This document shows positions 3,494-37,063 of a stretch of DNA of 42,087 nucleotides, one piece after another. Made by a program: the position numbers and the translations under genes. Position 1 is the first letter of the stretch. The number at the start of each line of letters is the position of its first letter. The stretch is taken from IMG/VR virus record IMGVR_UViG_2565956712_000007; one strand, given 5' to 3'. This DNA comes from a virus. Lineage: Duplodnaviria > Heunggongvirae > Uroviricota > Caudoviricetes. A model generated the notes under the pieces. That model searched no databases. It was not told the DNA's origin and was given only the letters and a program-made list of their open reading frames with translations.

Positions 3494-6469
3494 TTACATT
3501 GACATTAATATAAACATGGCTAATTCATCATAGCGAATTCCGTATCGTCCTCCTGCTTTTTTTACAAGAATCATATTTCCTGTTTTATATTGAGAATAAA
3601 TTTTCTCACCTGTATCAGGATCTGTGCTCTCTTCAGTTATCACCTCTTCATCCCATACGTCAGGCCATTCATCGTAACACCAAAAAGCATATTGCTCAGG
3701 ATTTAAACCATGCTTTCTAAGAATATCCCCTACGGTTTGAGCGCCAACGCCAAAATGATACCTGGACGACTCAATTCCTTTGTGATTAATTGAGTCATTA
3801 AATTTAAATTTATAGATGACTGACTTTATTTCAATAGCGGCATCACGCTCTGCATTAAGAATATCATATCTTGTTTTAAGAGTTTCATCTGATGTATTGA
3901 TTGACCCGGTTCCTGCATAGATAACAGAGCATCTGTTTGATGGCTGTCCAATAGCTTTAACATTATCATCAACAGGAGCTATTTTATTAGCATCTGCCAA
4001 CCACCAGTCTGTTCCATCAGCGTGACCGACTCTTACTCTTATCCCACTTCTAATATTTAAACTTCCGGTATTACTCTGTAAATTACAATCTCCTGACGTT
4101 GGTCCAAGCAGTACAGTTTTACCAACACCACATACTACTCTGGCATTTCCTTTTTGTGATACGAGTCTTGACTCACCTCCCGACTGCTCAGGAAGAGATT
4201 TATGGTCTATAAATGCATCGCGGGGGTTAAATACACCGTCTCCAGAATTATATCTTCCTCCTGTATAGTTGTTAAATACAGGACCCCAGTCAACGCCATT
4301 GCCTTCAGAGCACCCGACCATTCTAAGCACTCGTGTATTCCCTGCTGCATATGGTAATGAGCTTGTTGATTGCCGGGAAGCTATCATACGTGCTCCATAA
4401 CCAATAGCATTACCACCATTTATAGTTACATATGCTTGCTGGCTTTCGAAATATGTACTGTAAAAGTTCATATTTCCACAGTCATGCAGATGAATAAGAA
4501 CATCATCCCATCCCTGAATGGTTCCTGCATGTACCTGTACACCGCGAACTGGTTCCCCTGAAACCTCCATACACTCTGATGGCCGGCTGAATGGCTGAGA
4601 CAGGTATTGCGATGTGGCAAGCAGATGTGTGTGGTGATACAGGCTGGTAATGTAGCAATCGAAAAATTGCGTTCCCGCCATACCAAAGTTATCTATGTCA
4701 TTTCGCCGTATAGTAGAACCTACTGTTGCCTCAGAAGCGTTAGACACTCCAGTAAATACTAACTTATCACCGGATACGGATAATCCTGAATAAGTGAAAT
4801 TCCTGCCTCCAGATCTTAAAACCCCGGACGTTTCGAAGGTGTGGCTTGCTGACCATGGGATTTCGATGGTGCTGGACGTTACCGCTGTAATTCGGAATAC
4901 ATCATGGGCGCGGATCGAAACCCCCTTGAATCCCTGGAATCTACAGTGATAATAGTTTTCATCCTCGCCCTGAGCAGCCAGCGTGCCAGATACAGGAATG
5001 TTCGTTTTTAAAAGTGCCGTCTTGCGCCAGTATCCAACCACCTGCAAATTGCGGTATTCATTGCCAAAAGACGCACGTGACCAAATACCTACATCCCACT
5101 CATCGCCAAGACCGGTATTTGCAATGTCTTTATAACCATCCAGACCATTGAAATATGGAACAATACGAAAGTTCTCAAGGCGAACACATCCTGTCTCTGG
5201 CATCAATATTGCGGCAGAGAATGGTTTAAGCGTGGCTCTTGTAGCCCCATTAGCATCACCGTTAGTAAAATCCAATAAATCATATGATGACGCAGGTGCC
5301 GTTGTTGTATACGGGTCTTCGGAAGATGGATTAGAAACCACACCACCACTAACATCCATATTAGAAACACAATCTACAGTATATTTTTTATTTCCTACCC
5401 CGTACATCAGGAATGTGGTCCCTGTGGTAATATCAGGAGCAAATGTTGCAGTATATCCAGAGACCCATTTGCCCACACCAAGACCAATTATCCCACCACC
5501 AGAAACAGGTGTTAACGTATCCGTTATTACATACGCATTATCAGTACCATAAATAACCTTTCCTGTGTTAAGGGCAGCTTGCCACGCGGCCCAGTCTATT
5601 GACTGAGATAATGAGTCAACAAAAGGATATAAGGATTTTGCTTCAGAAATTGAAGAAAACCTCTCAGATAATGGATGATATTTCCCATCCCCAATTGCTC
5701 CGAATTGTTTTACATTTAAGAAAAGAGCATTGTTTTCATGCTGAGTTATAGTTACAGCCCCGGCAAATGGCTGCCTTACACCAATTAATGCATCACCTTT
5801 TCCTTCTCCTGCGCTAGATAATTGCAGAAGAACATCTGCGGCACTGCCAGAAGGCACAGGTACACCTATAGGTTTACCATTGACGATACCAATGACAGTT
5901 TCTTCCAGTAAATGAACTGGAGGAAGTGGTTCAATAAAATTATCTGGAACCCGTAATGTCCTGTTAATATTCACATTAACAATATTATCAACATAATTCT
6001 TTGTAGCTGCATCTTGAGGCTTGGAAGGATCGCGCAAATTGCGGATGTAATTATTCAAAGCATCGTAATAGTTTGCCACAAATGATGGTTTGCGCAGCGC
6101 CAGGCTAAACCAACTGCGGACTTGCTGTATCAGCATCGTCAGCTTATCTAACGCGTCTTCATGCACCTCAGCGAAAAACTTTCCCTGATTTCGCAGATCA
6201 GTTTCCTGCGTAACCGGTAGCTCTCGTGATATAGAAATCTGATAACCGTTAGCTAACGCCTTCGACAGAATTACATTACCGCCATTATATCCACCAGCCC
6301 CTGTGACAGTGTAATCAGTATCAAGAGCCAGCACAGCGATATTTTCGTCAAGGTCAACCACCTGTACTGCCAGATCAGATTCCTTGAAAACCCTAAAGGT
6401 ATACGGAAATGATGTCGTAACGCCGTTACCTGTGTATTCGTTGTGGTCAACTTCGGTTGAGACCGTCAT
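3494..6469 (-). CDS. Tailspike / tail fibre (991 aa): T7-type N-terminal attachment domain, central depolymerase-like body, C-terminal chaperone-like domain
   Basis: N-terminus GNGVTTSFPYTF...LDTDYTV pattern; C-terminal ...YKFKFND...GIRYDELAMFIL; GGAGA RBS. Confidence 0.8.
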   Translation of the reverse strand: MTVSTEVDHNEYTGNGVTTSFPYTFRVFKESDLAVQVVDLDENIAVLALDTDYTVTGAGGYNGGNVILSKALANGYQISISRELPVTQETDLRNQGKFFAEVHEDALDKLTMLIQQVRSWFSLALRKPSFVANYYDALNNYIRNLRDPSKPQDAATKNYVDNIVNVNINRTLRVPDNFIEPLPPVHLLEETVIGIVNGKPIGVPVPSGSAADVLLQLSSAGEGKGDALIGVRQPFAGAVTITQHENNALFLNVKQFGAIGDGKYHPLSERFSSISEAKSLYPFVDSLSQSIDWAAWQAALNTGKVIYGTDNAYVITDTLTPVSGGGIIGLGVGKWVSGYTATFAPDITTGTTFLMYGVGNKKYTVDCVSNMDVSGGVVSNPSSEDPYTTTAPASSYDLLDFTNGDANGATRATLKPFSAAILMPETGCVRLENFRIVPYFNGLDGYKDIANTGLGDEWDVGIWSRASFGNEYRNLQVVGYWRKTALLKTNIPVSGTLAAQGEDENYYHCRFQGFKGVSIRAHDVFRITAVTSSTIEIPWSASHTFETSGVLRSGGRNFTYSGLSVSGDKLVFTGVSNASEATVGSTIRRNDIDNFGMAGTQFFDCYITSLYHHTHLLATSQYLSQPFSRPSECMEVSGEPVRGVQVHAGTIQGWDDVLIHLHDCGNMNFYSTYFESQQAYVTINGGNAIGYGARMIASRQSTSSLPYAAGNTRVLRMVGCSEGNGVDWGPVFNNYTGGRYNSGDGVFNPRDAFIDHKSLPEQSGGESRLVSQKGNARVVCGVGKTVLLGPTSGDCNLQSNTGSLNIRSGIRVRVGHADGTDWWLADANKIAPVDDNVKAIGQPSNRCSVIYAGTGSINTSDETLKTRYDILNAERDAAIEIKSVIYKFKFNDSINHKGIESSRYHFGVGAQTVGDILRKHGLNPEQYAFWCYDEWPDVWDEEVITEESTDPDTGEKIYSQYKTGNMILVKKAGGRYGIRYDELAMFILMSM

Positions 6470-6572
6470 GTTAAATCTCCAGATAGTCGCAGCACCCGTT
6501 GCGCCGCATATCTGGTTATTCTATTACCTGAAAAACCACATATGGATAGAAAGGATGTGAATACGAACAGAT

Positions 6573-6589
6573 ATTACCTTTCAGGTAAT
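6573..6589. promoter_or_regulatory. Operator-like site ATTACC-TTTCA-GGTAAT
   Basis: Perfect 6-bp inverted half-sites, 5-bp spacer; member of a 14-copy family. Confidence 0.6.
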
Positions 6590-6627
6590 TTGCAAAACGT
6601 GCTGGATAGCAAACAAATTATTTGATA

Positions 6628-6643
6628 CTGTATAAATATACAG
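6628..6643. promoter_or_regulatory. LexA (SOS) box CTGTATAAATATACAG
   Basis: CTGT-N8-ACAG with AT-rich centre, flanked tA...tt, 22 nt upstream of the ATG at 6665. Confidence 0.65.
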
Positions 6644-6664
6644 TTATTGCATGGAGAAGATAAG

Positions 6665-6922
6665 ATGCAGCAGTATCACTATCCACTGGAAGACGGATTT
6701 ACCGAAAGGATTCACACGCCGGGAGGCGTCAGGTCACTGGTGGAGGGATCGCACTTGATGAAATTACTCCGGGATCTCGATAAGGATGGATTTAATGTCG
6801 ATGGCCCACTTGCCGAACTGACTGCACTGATTAACTACGTCACCAGCTCACAGATGTCTATGCGGGATCTGCAAACACATCTCGACTATTGTGCCGAACA
6901 ATTACGAAAACAAACCCGGTAA
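6665..6922 (+). CDS. Small SOS-controlled protein (85 aa) carrying the antirepressor C-terminal module; candidate antirepressor
   Basis: GGAG RBS; C-terminal half aligns with the last 77 aa of both Ant proteins (LM.LL..L..DG..V.G..AELT...Y......RD.QTH..Y). Confidence 0.6.
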   Translation: MQQYHYPLEDGFTERIHTPGGVRSLVEGSHLMKLLRDLDKDGFNVDGPLAELTALINYVTSSQMSMRDLQTHLDYCAEQLRKQTR

Positions 6923-6929
6923 ATTTAAA

Positions 6930-6945
6930 GGCCGCAAGAGCGGCC
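6930..6945. terminator. Hairpin terminator GGCCGC-AAGA-GCGGCC between convergent genes
   Basis: Perfect 6-bp GC stem, 4-nt loop, T-rich flanks. Confidence 0.6.
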
Positions 6946-7673
6946 TATCGTTTCGCTTTGTGCTCATCCCAGCACGTTTTGCACCATGCCATTAAGCCGT
7001 CCGCATTTTGATTATTAGGGTAAAAGCTGGTTCGTTTTCTGCGGACATTACAAATTGGGCACCACTTCATATGGCGTGTATTCTTTGGGCCATCGAGACA
7101 CCTTGCACACCATTTAGTCAATCCATCTGGATTTTTTGACGATTTCCTGAATTTTTCATATGGAAGGTTTATTCTGCATCGCAAGCACTGCTTGCTACCA
7201 CTTGAAACTCTGTTAGCTGATTCTTCTTTTGGCGGCGATACAGAAGGTATTCTTGCTGGCTCTGATATTGCCTGAGGTGCTTTTTTAGATGACTGAGACG
7301 ATATGTCATCACCAGGGAATCTTCCATGATATGCCGGACGCGTTGACACTCCAGGTGGAATCTCAGCTGTAAACGGCTTTGGCTGAATCAGTTGCCTCTC
7401 TTTTGCTAACTCCTGCTGTTTATAATATGTCTGGATTACCGCACTATCATAAGCAGGAGGTGCGGAAATATTAGGCGCATTACCTCCAGTTTTTTGAAAC
7501 TGAGTAGAGGTGTGTTCTATCACCTGTGTACGATTAATCGTTATCTCCCCATCTTCGGTCTTTATCGTTTTGTTATGATTAACGACCGTACGATCAGAGA
7601 TCTTAGTCTTGTTCTGGTTGATAACGTAAATAATCACCGCAACCACACCAACAACTATCCAGAAAACTTCCAT
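6945..7673 (-). CDS. Membrane-anchored protein with duplicated Cys-rich (zinc-finger-like) C-terminal repeats; moron
   Basis: N-terminal TM helix; two C-x2-C ... W-C-x2-C repeats; operator-like site in its upstream region. Confidence 0.55.
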   Translation of the reverse strand: MEVFWIVVGVVAVIIYVINQNKTKISDRTVVNHNKTIKTEDGEITINRTQVIEHTSTQFQKTGGNAPNISAPPAYDSAVIQTYYKQQELAKERQLIQPKPFTAEIPPGVSTRPAYHGRFPGDDISSQSSKKAPQAISEPARIPSVSPPKEESANRVSSGSKQCLRCRINLPYEKFRKSSKNPDGLTKWCARCLDGPKNTRHMKWCPICNVRRKRTSFYPNNQNADGLMAWCKTCWDEHKAKR

Positions 7674-7692: not shown

Positions 7693-7709
7693 ATTACCTT
7701 AAAGGTAAT
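7693..7709. promoter_or_regulatory. Operator-like site ATTACC-TTAAA-GGTAAT
   Basis: Perfect inverted half-sites. Confidence 0.6.
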
Positions 7710-7785: not shown

Positions 7786-7802
7786 ATTACCTTTACGGTA
7801 AA
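7786..7802. promoter_or_regulatory. Operator-like site ATTACC-TTTAC-GGTAAA
   Basis: One mismatch to consensus; next to TTTACA -35-like hexamer. Confidence 0.5.
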
Positions 7803-7894
7803 TTTACATCGCACTCCTCTTGTGCCATAGTAATCGGGCACTGGCAAAATCCAGTGCCGGGATTGGCGTCCCGGATTACTACAGAGGCACATAT

Positions 7895-7915
7895 GCCGCA
7901 TAAGCGGTTTTTTTT
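7895..7915 (+). terminator. Intrinsic terminator in the ant leader
   Basis: Short GC stem GCCGC-ATAA-GCGG followed by T8. Confidence 0.5.
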
Positions 7916-8068
7916 ATGTGTAAAGCGCACCTATTCTATGGTGGGCTGTGTGGGGGCACCGAAAGGTGCGCCGGGTCCTTTGTAGCCGGTTACGCCAACC
8001 CTGCACAGTTCACCACCAACCGATTGGCGTCGGTAGTGGTGATTAACCTAACTACAAAGGTGATCACT

Positions 8069-8755
8069 ATGACTGCTAACGTAACCCCATCTGTTTTTCA
8101 TTTTGAATCAGAAGCAACCATTCGAGCCATTGTTATTGATGGAAATCCTTGGTTTGTTGCCAAAGACGTTATTAAAGCTCTTCAACTGACAAACCCCACT
8201 ATGTCAATAAAATCTCTTGATGATGATGAAAGGGCTAAATTTAACTTAGGCCGTCAAGGCGAAACCAATATTATCAACGAGTCAGGCCTCTACACACTGA
8301 TCCTCCGCTGCCGCGATGCGGTGACACCAGGCACTATCCCATACCGCTTTCGTAAATGGGTTACAGGTGAGGTTCTTCCTCAGATCCGCCGCACCGGAAG
8401 TTACATTAAAAACTCGCTCCCGCAAGAAGAACGCATAAAGATGGTTGCCGACCAGGTAGCCAACGCCACGGCGTCAGCAGTAATGCAGGCAATGAAGGTA
8501 GAGAACAAAACCTACAGCGCCCCACTGAAGCCCGGCTACCGCAGCCTGATTCATTCGCCGTCTGGTGTTCTCGGCCTGACAGAGAACTCACTGCTGATGA
8601 ATCTGCTGAACCAGTTACAGGACGACGGGCACGACGTATCGGGCGCGGCGGCGGAGCTGACCACCATGTTCTGCTACATCGTCGGTGTGAGCAAATGCCT
8701 GCGTGATATCCAGACCCACGCGGAGTACATCAACGACAAGGCAGGGTTCTTCTGA
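8069..8755 (+). CDS. Antirepressor, Bro-N-type N-terminal domain (Ant1)
   Basis: N-terminus FHFESEATIRAIVIDGNPWFVAKDV; RBS AAGGTGA; C-terminal 77 aa near-identical to Ant2. Track start 7916 is likely too far upstream. Confidence 0.8.
   Translation: MTANVTPSVFHFESEATIRAIVIDGNPWFVAKDVIKALQLTNPTMSIKSLDDDERAKFNLGRQGETNIINESGLYTLILRCRDAVTPGTIPYRFRKWVTGEVLPQIRRTGSYIKNSLPQEERIKMVADQVANATASAVMQAMKVENKTYSAPLKPGYRSLIHSPSGVLGLTENSLLMNLLNQLQDDGHDVSGAAAELTTMFCYIVGVSKCLRDIQTHAEYINDKAGFF
8522..8755 (+). repeat. Inverted repeat arm A (234 bp, about 96% identical to arm B)
   Basis: Encodes C-terminal 77 aa of Ant1; about 10 mismatches to the reverse complement of 9618..9851. Confidence 0.85.
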
Positions 8756-8825: not shown

Positions 8826-8842
8826 ATTACCTTAAAGGTAAA
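8826..8842. promoter_or_regulatory. Operator-like site ATTACC-TTAAA-GGTAAA
   Basis: One mismatch; directly upstream of an AAGGAGG RBS. Confidence 0.55.
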
Positions 8843-8853
8843 GGAGGCGCGAT

Positions 8854-9021
8854 ATGACAGCGTTGAAAAATCGTACTCAGCACAATGAACAAGCCAAGCA
8901 ATGCTGGGATGTCATTGGAAAAGTTATGCTTGGCCGCGCAAGCAAAGAGCGCGACAAGGATATGGTTTACCAGACAGGAACATCTTTCAGCGACTTCAAG
9001 GCGGCATTTCGCTCCAAATAG
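8854..9021 (+). CDS. Small protein (55 aa), hypothetical; first gene of cassette
   Basis: AAGGAGG RBS 6 nt before ATG; not in ORF track (under 60 aa); opposite-strand track ORF 8827..9027 has no RBS. Confidence 0.5.
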   Translation: MTALKNRTQHNEQAKQCWDVIGKVMLGRASKERDKDMVYQTGTSFSDFKAAFRSK

Positions 9022-9041: not shown

Positions 9042-9482
9042 TTGAAGTTTAACATTAGAATATCTAATAGTTTTCTAAATGGGGAAAGCAACACCCCTTT
9101 CGCTGTAGACGGACCTTTCCTTACTGACGATGAAATAAAAATCATACAAAGGTTTTTAGAAGATGTTGCCAATGGAAGGGCGCTTGTTGGAAAAAACAAG
9201 CCATCGTGGGTTAATGATAACCATGATAAAATTCCCGGCTCAGACAATTATGAGCAAGAGAATTATTGGCATTATCATTGTGGGCCAACATGGTATCCAA
9301 ACACATTTAAGAATTATACCATTAACTTAAATTTCAACCCTGGCGGAATGCATTCTAATGAATGCATTCATTATGCAAAAAATGATAATGAAATTGTCGT
9401 TGTTGGATTTTCAAGAGAACACATACCTTTCCTTTCATCAGATGGAAACGACAATCCGCTTTTTTATGATGAAGAAGAATAG
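9042..9482 (+). CDS. AT-rich hypothetical protein (146 aa, TTG start); moron, function unknown
   Basis: AGGAG RBS 6 nt before TTG; visibly AT-rich versus flanks; strong terminator after stop. Confidence 0.5.
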   Translation: MKFNIRISNSFLNGESNTPFAVDGPFLTDDEIKIIQRFLEDVANGRALVGKNKPSWVNDNHDKIPGSDNYEQENYWHYHCGPTWYPNTFKNYTINLNFNPGGMHSNECIHYAKNDNEIVVVGFSREHIPFLSSDGNDNPLFYDEEE

Positions 9483-9617: not shown

Positions 9618-9851
9618 TCAGAAGAACCCTGCCTTGTCGTTGATGTACTCCGCGTGCGTCTGGATATCACGCAGGCATTTGCTCACACCAACGATGTAGC
9701 AGAACATGGTTGTCAGCTCCGCCGCCGCGCCCGATACATCATGCCCGTCTTCCTGTAACTGGTTCAGCAGATTCATCAGCAGTGAGTGCTCCGTCAGGCC
9801 GAGAACACCAGACGGAGAATGAATCAGGCTGCGGTAGCCGGGCTTCAGCGG
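9618..9851 (-). repeat. Inverted repeat arm B (234 bp)
   Basis: Encodes C-terminal 77 aa of Ant2; reverse complement matches 8522..8755. Confidence 0.85.
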
Positions 9852-10556
9852 ATAACCATAACATTTTGTCTGTGTTTTAATTGCCTCACGAAGCGCATCT
9901 AACATCTTGACTGCCACTTCATCATTCTCTGATGCAGATCCAGCAGGGAGATACTCCCCTTCAAGCGGAACCCGAGCAACAAGAGACAACGCTTCGGCGA
10001 ATTGATCTTCATCAATTTCTTTGTACGAACAGCCAAAATGAGATTTCAGTGACGACCACATGGTGATCATCGCCTTAGCCTGTTTTTCTTTTGGCAGAGA
10101 CTGACCGCGACTCATGACGAGTTGTTTAATGGCTTCCTGCTGTTCAGTGGTGATTTTACCCGGCAACGCCTTTTTAGCTTTGCGTGGGTTAACTACATGG
10201 CCTTTAGTCCAGTAATCGTAGAGCACATCGTCACACTCTTCCTGATACTGGATTACCTTGTCGCGGATTTCAGGGCGTACTTTGTTTGGACTGATGCTGT
10301 TCAACCAAGCTGCCAATTTTCGTAAAGCCATACAAATCATGGCTTGCACCCCACCGGCAGAAGGTATGGTGATTTCCACCATACCCTTCGAGAAGCGTTG
10401 AGAAATCTTCTTATGTTGAGATTTCCAGTCTAGCCCCATTCCCTCAACGATAGGTTTCATTGGGGTATACGGTTCACCGTTGTGATTGACAACATAAAGC
10501 TCTGCGCCGTGGAATGGCACGTTGATAGTAGATACCGCTGTTGCTATACTCGTCAT
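9618..10556 (-). CDS. Antirepressor, P22 Ant-type N-terminal domain (Ant2)
   Basis: N-terminus VPFHGAELYVVNHNGEPYTPMKPIVEGMGLDW; downstream of arc-like gene as in P22 immI. Confidence 0.8.
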   Translation of the reverse strand: MTSIATAVSTINVPFHGAELYVVNHNGEPYTPMKPIVEGMGLDWKSQHKKISQRFSKGMVEITIPSAGGVQAMICMALRKLAAWLNSISPNKVRPEIRDKVIQYQEECDDVLYDYWTKGHVVNPRKAKKALPGKITTEQQEAIKQLVMSRGQSLPKEKQAKAMITMWSSLKSHFGCSYKEIDEDQFAEALSLVARVPLEGEYLPAGSASENDEVAVKMLDALREAIKTQTKCYGYPLKPGYRSLIHSPSGVLGLTEHSLLMNLLNQLQEDGHDVSGAAAELTTMFCYIVGVSKCLRDIQTHAEYINDKAGFF

Positions 10557-10628
10557 GTCGTTAATTCCTATACGTAGTTTTACGATACTGAAGCCCTGAC
10601 GGTCTGGCCACCGTTGGGCTTCGCTGTT

Positions 10629-10796
10629 TTATGCCACGCTATTCTTCTCACCAGTGAGTCCATACACTTTCCTCAGCTGATAGATAATCTCTGTATTGAA
10701 CTTTCGGCATTCTTTTTCGCCATTTCTTTCAATAGCTAACTTCACATCGTCCGGAAAACGAACTCGTCGTTGACACATCTCTTTTGCTTTTTGCAT
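10629..10796 (-). CDS. Arc-like ribbon-helix-helix repressor (56 aa)
   Basis: RVRFPDDVKLAIERNGEK..FNTEIIYQL resembles P22 Arc; AAGGAG RBS 7 nt before the ATG at 10796. Confidence 0.7.
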   Translation of the reverse strand: MQKAKEMCQRRVRFPDDVKLAIERNGEKECRKFNTEIIYQLRKVYGLTGEKNSVA

Positions 10797-10810
10797 TTCA
10801 TATCTCCTTA

Positions 10811-10825
10811 GCCCCACGGTGGGGC
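10811..10825. promoter_or_regulatory. 15-bp palindrome GCCCCAC-G-GTGGGGC, candidate Arc/Mnt operator
   Basis: Perfect 7-bp arms; between divergent arc-like and mnt-like genes, beside a TTGACA hexamer on the minus strand. Confidence 0.5.
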
Positions 10826-10916
10826 AAAACAATTGTCACACCGTGCGTCATTGATGTCAAGCACACGGTGAGGCATACTTCAATCATTGCAAGTAACTCA
10901 ATATTTGGTGAAGAAC

Positions 10917-23014: not shown

Positions 23015-23065
23015 CTTCTTTCTCCATTAGTGGGTCTGTTACGACCCACAGGTTAATAACAGGCG

Positions 23066-29649: not shown

Positions 29650-30242
29650 TGATTACCATCCTGACGTTCTTTGAGTCGCTTCCTGGCTGCTGCTATGCGA
29701 TCAGCAATTGTCACATTCACATTAACATCCAGACGTTCTTTGAATGCGTTGACATCAACATGCTTACCAATCAGCTCAAGGTTCTTCACCTTGTCAGGCC
29801 ATTTAATTTTTTTGAGGATTGTCTCTATTGAATCCTCGTTCATGTTCATGATGGTCGATGACAGATCAAAGCCACTAAGCGTAGTGCGCCAGATTTTCGG
29901 CCACTCACGGATTGGTTTAAGGCTCCCATCGTCGTTGAGGATGTCGATCACGTCCATCTGGTCGATCTCCACCAGGCGCATGAGAACGTAATCAGCACTG
30001 ACACGCATTCGTTTGTTGCGCTCCTCCATCAACTCGGCAATCCGTTTCTGAATGCGTTCATCGCGCATCATGACACTGGCTTTAACTGCCGCTGTATTTG
30101 GGGAGAATCCTGCGTTAATCGCAGCCTGAGTCTGGTTTTCAGGCGTTTTGATGTATGACTGGCAATAAGCCTCCTGCATTGCTGTGAGCGGCTTAAATTG
30201 CGTTGATTTGCGTTTATAGGTTTTAGGTTCAGCAGGCATCAT
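29646..30242 (-). CDS. Terminase small subunit (start probably the ATG-ATG at 30242/30239, not the track TTG at 30320)
   Basis: Terminase_2-like region LTAMQEAYCQSYI...AAINAGFS; upstream 78 nt hold an operator-like site and a terminator hairpin. Confidence 0.7.
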   Translation of the reverse strand: MMPAEPKTYKRKSTQFKPLTAMQEAYCQSYIKTPENQTQAAINAGFSPNTAAVKASVMMRDERIQKRIAELMEERNKRMRVSADYVLMRLVEIDQMDVIDILNDDGSLKPIREWPKIWRTTLSGFDLSSTIMNMNEDSIETILKKIKWPDKVKNLELIGKHVDVNAFKERLDVNVNVTIADRIAAARKRLKERQDGNQ

Positions 30243-36224: not shown

Positions 36225-36289
36225 TTCACCCATAAGGTAACAAAAATCAAGGATAGTTACCCATGAGGTGCATTTACCTGTTGGGTAAT
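36225..36289. promoter_or_regulatory. OR-like operator cluster of three 17-bp sites (36225-36241, 36256-36272, 36273-36289)
   Basis: TTCACC-CATAA-GGTAAC, GTTACC-CATGA-GGTGCA, TTTACC-TGTTG-GGTAAT between divergent cro-like and cI-like genes. Confidence 0.7.
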
Positions 36290-36343: not shown

Positions 36344-36928
36344 ATGAAAAGTATCCAGGACGTCCGCAGGCAAAATCTCAACGACTTGATCGACCGTGAA
36401 TTCAATGGTGTTCAGACGCGGATGGCTGAAAAACTTGGAACTCAGGCAAATCTGGTAAACCGCTGGGCTCTTGGTAAGAAGGTTATCGGCGATCAGGTTG
36501 CGCGAAAAATTGAAGCTGCCGCCAATAAACCCCGTAACTGGCTTGATATCGATCGCTCGCTTTCTCAGGAAGGTTTTCAGCCTGTCGGCCCAAGCGACAT
36601 TGGCCAGCTGGCGGCTCACAACCTGGAACGCTGGATGAGCGAAAGCCGCGACCTTTCAACACAGGGAAAACTTCACCGCGCATCCGGCGTCGCCCAGGTG
36701 ACAATCAGCCGCCTGTTAAACAATGAGGTCAGCGTTTCCATTTCCACCCTGGAGAATGTTGCATCCGCATTCGGGCGTCACGGCTATGAATTACTGATTC
36801 ACCCGCACGACCCTGCGACCATCAACTATGATCGCTCGCGCTACGCATTGTTACCCGAAACCGAGAAAGCAAAGATCGAAAGTTACATTGAATTTGTCAT
36901 CAACCAGAACGAAAAAAACAAACAATAA
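36344..36928 (+). CDS. Prophage repressor, cI-position, HTH (XRE-type) without recognisable S24 autocleavage domain
   Basis: HTH motif TRMAEKLGTQANLVNRWALGKK plus second HTH-like segment; flanked by OR-like and OL-like operator clusters. Confidence 0.7.
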   Translation: MKSIQDVRRQNLNDLIDREFNGVQTRMAEKLGTQANLVNRWALGKKVIGDQVARKIEAAANKPRNWLDIDRSLSQEGFQPVGPSDIGQLAAHNLERWMSESRDLSTQGKLHRASGVAQVTISRLLNNEVSVSISTLENVASAFGRHGYELLIHPHDPATINYDRSRYALLPETEKAKIESYIEFVINQNEKNKQ

Positions 36929-36984: not shown

Positions 36985-37063
36985 ATTACCTAACGGGTAA
37001 TTTTTTTAACTCATATCTATTGACATCAAACCATATACGCATAATTATTACCTCAACGGTAAC
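36985..37063. promoter_or_regulatory. OL/pL-like region: two 17-bp operators (36985-37001, 37047-37063) flanking a TTGACA -35 hexamer (37020-37025)
   Basis: ATTACC-TAACG-GGTAAT and ATTACC-TCAAC-GGTAAC; promoter points into the early-left operon. Confidence 0.65.

Follow-up and report, generated by a model that had tools for sequence, protein, structure and literature searches.

In the Salmonella phage SPC32H, a small antirepressor (Ant) under the control of LexA inactivates the phage repressor (Rep) through a protein-protein interaction (Kim and Ryu, 2013, as cited in PMC7380047). As summarized in PMC9638917, an Ant tetramer binds a pair of Rep dimers and disrupts the DNA-binding tetramer of Rep (Kim et al., 2016). 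Entry 5D50 of the Protein Data Bank (PDB) contains both Ant and Rep chains. The Ant-Rep-LexA lytic switch of SPC32H was described by Kim and Ryu in 2013 (J Virol 87:11775) and by Kim et al. in 2016 (PNAS 113:E2480), with structures deposited as 5D50 and 5D4Z. A comparable locus is considered here in the IMG/VR virus record IMGVR_UViG_2565956712_000007, a stretch of 42,087 nucleotides (nt) that was analysed as a whole and is referred to below as the window. The window represents a prophage of the epsilon15-like group (Uetakevirus), phiV10/TL-2011b type, with matches to phiV10, TL-2011b, ZX5 and epsilon15 relatives in megablast searches. Its ant gene (6665-6922), together with the repressor gene rep, very probably constitutes the known LexA-Ant-Rep switch of SPC32H in an E. 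coli prophage. The homology, synteny and box conservation described below are properties of the prophage itself, whereas its behaving in the same way as SPC32H would follow from the ortholog. Coordinates are collected in Table 1.

The small antirepressor, its repressor and the LexA box

The small Ant aligns over residues 2-84 of 85 with chain E of PDB 5D50, described as 'Anti-repressor protein' (E=1.4e-46), which is its sole match among solved structures, and it is 86.7% identical (tblastn) to the annotated ant product of SPC32H (KC911856). The homology to an SPC32H-type Ant extends over the full length of the protein, which also matches phrog_450 (E=7e-48). The ATG at 6665 has a GGAG ribosome-binding site 8 nt upstream; a TTG start at 6647 was dropped in favour of this ATG on the basis of the position of the ribosome-binding site and of the orthologs. 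A Pfam match to DUF724 was rejected as noise (17 bits, against a cut-off of 38). In E. coli records, the gene is nearly always labelled 'hypothetical protein'; it has no Pfam family, and its PHROG family is listed as of 'unknown function'.

The position of the gene is also that of an SPC32H-type ant. The tailspike gene (3494-6469, minus strand) and ant (plus strand) are divergent, with an operator and an SOS box in the region between them, and ant is convergent with the tail genes. This arrangement is common to SPC32H, epsilon15, phiV10, Tyrion, BUCT554 and two Klebsiella phages, and distant loci were compared in the same way.

A Rep homolog without an autocleavage domain is encoded in the same genome as ant. 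Only helix-turn-helix (HTH) families are matched by this protein in Pfam, with no match to Peptidase_S24, which bears out an earlier statement, made from the DNA letters in a first-pass annotation of the window, that the repressor has no recognizable S24 domain. With the repressors of phiV10 and ZX5 it shares 100% identity. Its identity to SPC32H Rep is 41.8%, versus 86.7% for Ant; this asymmetry exists despite the use of the same operator half-sites, and a broad target range of Ant is one possible explanation.

The operator core, TTACC-N5-GGTAA, is present in 11 exact copies (starting at 6574, 7694, 7787, 8827, 27049, 30260, 33881, 33943, 36274, 36986 and 37048), and sites with one mismatch start at 30242 and 36226; 14 matches with at most one mismatch were counted in the window, against 0.69 expected. 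Nearly all transcription units have such operators next to them, namely those of the terminase and the head genes, an early gene, the operon of isrK and Ant1, and a small one at 8854, and clusters of the same motif are found at the same places in SPC32H. The repressor-type operator that the first-pass annotation had placed at 6573-6589 is real, as it is an exact copy of a motif also present in the rep/cro region and 3' of rep. Its core is kept in nine Uetakevirus phages, and in the GenBank record of epsilon15 the corresponding site, upstream of gp19, carries the annotation 'protein_bind repressor; lysogeny'. Because operators mark nearly every transcription unit, their distribution implies that one repressor may directly repress all promoters.

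The E. coli LexA-box consensus is TACTGTATATATATACAGTA, and the flanked box of the window, TACTGTATAAATATACAGTT, agrees with this consensus at 18 of 20 positions. The first-pass annotation had correctly read the sequence of this near-consensus box and the 85-aa open reading frame (ORF) at 6665-6922 that follows it, but the spacing between them is 21 nt rather than 22. Three matches to CTGT-N8-ACAG exist in the window (0.48 expected), and only the copy at 6628-6643 has an AT-rich spacer, as is typical of E. coli LexA sites. The copies at 23036 and 27578 were rejected as chance matches, with GC-rich spacers and no conservation in SPC32H.

Each of the nine aligned phages has the LexA box in this position; in the Klebsiella pair, one arm deviates by a single mismatch, ATGT replacing CTGT. 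A wider set of 17 diverse loci includes 14 that carry the box, 18-31 nt 5' of the start codon, and these box-bearing loci, both metagenomic and genomic, include homologs with only 30-45% protein identity and unalignable flanking DNA. The diversity required for this comparison came from contigs encoding distant representative homologs, and not from IMG/VR, from which the best 80 of 441 loci were taken, all of them from E. coli and 98-100% identical. Within that set, both arms, CTGT and ACAG, are preserved in 76 of the 80 loci, that is, in all those in which the box could be read, with a variable spacer. Because the box is conserved by phylogenetic footprinting, it appears to be under selection. 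Three distant small-Ant loci, L090 (on a bacterial chromosome of 4.5 Mb, CP009997.1), L094 and L095, have no canonical LexA box; L090 has TTGT-N7-ACAG, with a spacer one base shorter, which may reflect decay or another regulator.

Between SPC32H and its constitutively lytic variant SPC32N, the deposited genomes show just two base differences. One is a G>T change that falls in the CTGT arm of the box orthologous to that of the window and the other is a single tailspike base, the operator equivalent being intact in SPC32N. According to the abstract of the 2013 study, the box mutation of SPC32N is said to result in constitutive Ant production and lytic growth.

A simple promoter scan made no call for ant, and the hexamers proposed in Table 1 were drawn from conservation alone: both (TGGATA and TACTGT) show no variation among the seven phages of E. 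coli, Salmonella and Enterobacter in the alignment A1. An alternative pair is formed by TTGATA (6622-6627) and TATTGC (6645-6650). The LexA box aligns with that of SPC32H and overlaps the putative ant promoter, as judged solely from the conserved hexamers.

A module shared with two larger antirepressors

The window encodes two further antirepressors, Ant1 and Ant2, in which the small Ant is represented by a C-terminal module. In BLASTP comparisons, residues 2-79 of the small Ant are 41% identical to the C-terminus of Ant1 (E=3e-16), and residues 4-79 are 43% identical to that of Ant2 (E=1e-16). The likeness between the three C-termini had been recognized in the first-pass annotation but its extent, given as about 60 residues, was understated, since residues 2-79 align and nearly the entire small protein corresponds to the module. 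Chain E of 5D50 is the sole significant PDB match of both large proteins (residues 147-223 of Ant1, E=1.9e-13; residues 231-307 of Ant2, E=1.3e-13), with residues 3-79 of the chain covered. The fold is established by these sequence matches to 5D50. All three proteins also match phrog_450, with E values of about 1e-35 for Ant1 and Ant2. The N-terminal parts of Ant1 and Ant2 had been called unrelated; they do belong to different Pfam families, but both match phrog_245 and phrog_7940, at corresponding positions of the profiles, for which reason the wording was perhaps too strong.

Ant1 and Ant2 are 82% identical across their last 101 residues. At the DNA level, the final 270 nt or so of Ant1 (8486-8755) and Ant2 (9618-9887, minus strand) are 91-96% identical, and the final 210 nt are 96% identical, with a likeness that ends precisely at the stop codon. 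This end of the similarity marks a recombination boundary, and the pattern resembles that of a recent exchange of a cassette, or of gene conversion, involving Ant1 and Ant2 in one prophage.

A word-indexed protein search yielded close free-standing relatives only, and the fusions surfaced when 1.84 billion representative proteins were searched exhaustively with a profile, which returned only 64 clusters with the module. Most of these are free-standing proteins of 80-96 aa. The module is C-terminal in every fusion, behind Bro-N, AntA, Phage_pRha, ORF6N or, in the window, P22_AR_N, and 22 columns are invariant between the free and fused forms. Within the GenBank phage collection, 35 records have the module and 36 have a full-length Rep homolog; the two sets, both of Uetakevirus, are essentially the same. 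The pairing seen in the window, a small LexA-boxed ant adjoining a larger fused Ant, recurs at distant loci.

Ant1 is 81% identical to ORF4, an anti-repressor encoded by phage ZX5, the C-terminal 110 residues being almost identical. Overexpression of ORF4 reduced lysogens from 1e9 to 1e6, a 1000-fold decrease (PMC9782041). The module is likely, although unproven, to be the Rep-binding part of Ant1 and Ant2, because the SPC32H Ant (86 aa) is in its entirety a Rep-binding unit, because 5D50 chain E is the sole significant structure match of both large Ants, because the module and Rep homologs co-occur in about 35 phage records, and because the ZX5 ortholog of Ant1 lowers lysogeny when overexpressed. 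The identification of the shared module as the repressor-binding element, put forward in the first-pass annotation, is thus well supported by the 5D50 match, the co-occurrence with Rep and the ZX5 result, but falls short of proof. In phiV10 (2059-2747), a frameshift splits the Bro-N antirepressor and leaves the module in a separate 64-codon frame; because of this frameshift, the large Ant of phiV10 is probably inactive.

No CTGT-N8-ACAG site is associated with Ant1 or Ant2 in the scan of the window, and each gene is embedded in a control cassette of its own. Ant1 is preceded by isrK and C4 RNAs, as in the immI region of P1, with a predicted operator for the primary repressor at the promoter of the operon. 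The c4-a1b1 target model scored 45.1 near Ant1 (7825-8020 region), slightly below its gathering threshold of 46.7. The isrK/C4 cassette precedes a large Ant in eight other loci, and in seven of nine loci isrK has a Rep operator 33-36 nt upstream of it (36 nt in six of them, 33 nt in phiV10). In the E. coli, Enterobacter, Klebsiella and metagenome loci, the arms of this operator are invariant and its centre is variable. Ant2 combines a P22_AR_N domain with an arc-like gene, a gene in the position of mnt and a sar RNA, as in the immI region of P22. It has no Pfam match to P22_AR_C (PF10548), and its C-terminus matches 5D50 chain E instead, as if the P22_AR_C domain had been replaced by the SPC32H-Ant module. 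The three ant genes are thus predicted to be under three different controls: LexA for the small ant, Rep operators and IsrK/C4 RNA for Ant1, and Mnt, Arc and sar for Ant2.

Proposed operation of the switch and alternative explanations

In the proposed mechanism, lysogeny would be held by Rep, a repressor with two HTH motifs and no autocleavage domain, acting on TTACC-N5-GGTAA operators. In the uninduced cell, host LexA would occupy the box at 6628-6643, which overlaps the predicted core promoter of ant. DNA damage would activate RecA and lead to self-cleavage of LexA, allowing Ant to be made; Ant would then assemble (as a tetramer in SPC32H), bind Rep and split its DNA-binding tetramer into dimers, and every Rep-controlled promoter would be released. 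The expression 'RecA-independent induction', under which this sequence of events had been predicted, is a misnomer, because LexA autocleavage needs activated RecA; it is the cleavage of the phage repressor that the system does without. The substance of that prediction, a LexA-repressed small antirepressor that inactivates a non-cleavable repressor, is established for the SPC32H ortholog (PDB 5D50, and the accounts given in PMC7380047 and PMC9638917), and would extend to the window by analogy.

Ant1 and Ant2 would most probably bind the same Rep through their C-terminal module of about 80 aa. Ant1, with its Rep operators, its IsrK/C4 RNAs and the logic of P1 immI, would be derepressed upon inactivation of Rep or expressed transiently on infection, and its release after Rep inactivation could constitute a positive feedback. 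Ant2 sits in a P22-type mnt-arc-sar-ant cassette and would be wired differently from both the small ant and Ant1.

Some points weigh against the identification of this locus with the SPC32H switch and its extension to the large Ants. LexA binding, SOS induction and the binding of Ant to Rep are transferred from the Salmonella ortholog. The interface between Rep and Ant is assumed to be conserved, with a Rep just 41.8% identical to that of SPC32H, and the fused modules are just about 40% identical to the small Ant.

It is tentatively suggested that the 80-aa Ant fold may be a portable Rep-binding domain that has been recombined, as a discrete cassette, behind at least five N-terminal families (Bro-N, AntA, Rha, ORF6N and P22_AR_N), so that three inputs would converge on one Rep surface. 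If so, LexA would report DNA damage, the Rep operators and IsrK/C4 would form a positive-feedback or commitment loop as soon as Rep begins to fall, or allow transient expression on infection, and Mnt, Arc and sar would respond to superinfection. This would add a feed-forward layer to a non-lambda lytic switch and would provide the first structure-based account of the variable C-terminal halves of antirepressors of the Bro-N/KilA-N type.

That the module in the large Ants serves only as an oligomerization scaffold, the target being recognized by Bro-N or P22_AR_N, appears unlikely. A generic oligomerization domain would be expected to be commoner, but the module, free or fused, is essentially confined to phage records carrying this type of Rep, and just 64 matching clusters were found among the 1.84 billion representatives. 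The columns that are invariant across the free and fused forms also argue against a mere scaffold, and the association of five N-terminal families with one module points to a constant part matched to a constant partner. A scaffold would be consistent with the tetrameric state of SPC32H Ant (as described in PMC9638917), with the location of the module, which always follows N-terminal domains typical of antirepressors, and with the divergence of the fused clade from the small Ant, given above.

Ant1 and Ant2 might, instead of their own Rep, target the repressors of other resident or superinfected prophages. The P22 and P1 immI cassettes are generally known to act in superinfection and heteroimmunity, and the higher conservation of the small Ant than of Rep across hosts (87% versus 42%) fits a broad target range. 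Coupling of the Gifsy prophages by trans-acting antirepressors, as reported in PMC3121763, points in the same direction. Such crosstalk is nevertheless considered improbable, given that the Ant1 ortholog ORF4 pushes ZX5 itself to lysis and that the Ant1 operon bears the phage's own Rep operators. A second Rep-like gene was not noticed in the window, in which no dedicated search for one was made.

Dual control, as proposed in the first-pass annotation, in which Rep at 6574-6588 and LexA would both repress the ant promoter and Ant would need both to be relieved, is highly doubtful: the operator is a genuine Rep-type site, about 54 bp from the LexA box centre to centre and fixed in nine of nine aligned phages, but it lies outside both candidate ant core promoters (ending 14 bp upstream of the nearer and best-conserved -35 candidate, with its centre about 57-76 bp upstream of either predicted ant start), faces the divergent tailspike gene, which otherwise has no evident silencing, is one of a set of operators present at nearly every transcription unit and so not special to ant, and is intact in SPC32N, the changes of which affect only the LexA box and one tailspike base and in which Ant is reportedly constitutive, while an antirepressor tightly shut by its own target would be unable to start induction. 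The operator at 6574-6588 more likely controls the tailspike promoter than co-represses ant.

Other features surround the switch. A block at 6517-6546 (TTCTATTACC..AAACC..ATATG.AT), located between the tailspike start and the full operator, is kept in nine of nine phages and contains a lone operator half-site; it may belong to the tailspike promoter or leader. The gene convergent with ant (6945-7673, minus strand), which is preceded by the Rep operator at 7694, encodes a 242-aa protein with a hydrophobic N-terminal segment and two zinc-ribbon-like motifs at the C-terminus; it has sub-threshold matches to Stc1 and to endonuclease VII/Lar-like proteins, and belongs to phrog_6762 (unknown function). 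The segment 8799-9482 forms a small Rep-controlled unit: a promoter-like TTGCAG-16-TACTAT stands directly before the operator at 8827, after which come two ORFs, one of 55 aa (8854-9021) and one of 146 aa (9042-9482), the latter in phrog_5954 (unknown function).

Table 1. Features of the antirepressor loci and the repressor region, with positions in the window.
Feature	Position	Strand	Basis or remarks
Rep-type operator ATTACCTTTCAGGTAAT	6573-6589		core 6574-6588; between ant and the divergent tailspike gene
Putative ant promoter, TGGATA-17 nt-TACTGT	6603-6631	+	-35 at 6603-6608, -10 at 6626-6631; predicted from conservation
LexA (SOS) box CTGTATAAATATACAG	6628-6643		perfect palindrome; 21 nt from the ATG at 6665
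ant, 85-aa small antirepressor, SPC32H Ant ortholog	6665-6922	+	PDB 5D50_E, SPC32H ant, phrog_450
GC-rich hairpin, terminator-like	6929-6946		between convergent ant and 242-aa gene
Two Rep-type operators	7694-7708, 7787-7801		around promoter-like sites 5' of isrK/C4/Ant1
isrK-type RNA	7838-7914	+	Rfam RF01394, 76.8 bits (gathering 50)
C4 antisense RNA (P1-type immI)	7934-8020	+	Rfam RF01695, 79.5 bits (gathering 45)
Ant1, Bro-N and C-terminal SPC32H-Ant-like module	8069-8755	+	module 8501-8752; Pfam Bro-N, E=5.6e-20
Ant2, P22_AR_N and C-terminal SPC32H-Ant-like module	9618-10556	-	module 9621-9869; Pfam P22_AR_N, E=2.5e-45
sar antisense RNA (P22-type immI)	10558-10625	+	Rfam RF00262, 45.2 bits, barely above gathering 43
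Arc-like small repressor, 67 aa, 5' of Ant2	10629-10832	-	PHROG Arc-like matches; position as in P22 arc-ant
Mnt-position regulator, 153 aa, Arc-type ribbon-helix-helix	10887-11348	+	divergent from arc/Ant2; Pfam Arc, E=1.2e-14
Rep operators, OR-like	36226-36288		rep/cro intergenic region; sites 36226 and 36274
rep, 194-aa repressor	36344-36928	+	SPC32H Rep homolog; PDB 5D50_A 'Repressor', E=4e-42
Two Rep operators, OL-like	36986-37062		3' of rep, 5' of recombination/early operon; sites 36986 and 37048

Comparison with known systems

The core mechanism is already known for this phage group, at textbook level, and its finding in the window is a rediscovery in an unannotated E. coli ortholog that resolves no open question. 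By analogy with SPC32H, the gene labelled 'hypothetical' would be the SOS trigger of a prophage type that is very common in E. coli, Salmonella and Klebsiella (441 IMG/VR loci). What is added is modest, namely the modular reuse of the Ant fold and a wiring with three inputs, neither of which was seen stated in the literature consulted. Because the free Ant is homologous to the C-termini of larger antirepressors, a general rule is suggested for modular antirepressors, in which exchangeable N-terminal parts would be joined to a C-terminal part that determines specificity.

Tum of coliphage 186 and GfoA/GfhA of Gifsy-1/Gifsy-3 follow the same logic, with a LexA-repressed small antirepressor that binds a non-cleavable repressor (Shearwin, 1998; Lemire, 2011, PMC3121763). 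These proteins are from other phage types, and their resemblance to the small Ant is functional only; families of the Tum/GfoA type did not turn up among the Pfam, PHROG and PDB matches, no direct comparison having been made. The abstract of Kim and Ryu is said to describe the Tum and Gifsy antirepressors as structurally distinct from SPC32H Ant.

ORF4 of the Escherichia phage ZX5 (vB_EcoP_ZX5) is an ortholog of Ant1 from a phage with an identical Rep in which its overexpression lowers lysogeny 1000-fold. The ZX5 paper notes the Bro-N domain only, with no mention of LexA, of SPC32H or of the C-terminal homology, and has the small ant as 'hypothetical' (PMC9782041). The homology between the free Ant and the large antirepressors ties this unexplained phenotype (PMC9782041) to the solved complex in 5D50.

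The immI region of P1/P7 (c4-icd-ant) and the isrK-orf45-anrP region of Gifsy-1 (PMC4825925) resemble the Ant1 cassette in having isrK and C4 ahead of the antirepressor and an operator for the primary repressor on the operon. They differ in that the C-terminal domain of Ant1 is the SPC32H-Ant module. The immI region of P22 (mnt-arc-ant, sar) shares with the Ant2 cassette a P22_AR_N domain, an Arc-like gene, a divergent gene of the Arc fold and a match to sar RNA, whereas Ant2 has the SPC32H-Ant module in place of P22_AR_C.

SPC32H itself has in common with the window an orthologous Ant (87%), a homologous Rep without an S24 domain, and the same LexA box position, tailspike synteny and operator motif TTACC-N5-GGTAA. 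It differs in its Rep, which is 42% identical, and in having neither a large fused Ant nor immI-type cassettes: the interval between ant and the tail genes holds one small membrane protein only in SPC32H, whereas the prophage of the window carries about 4.5 kb of additional regulatory cargo.

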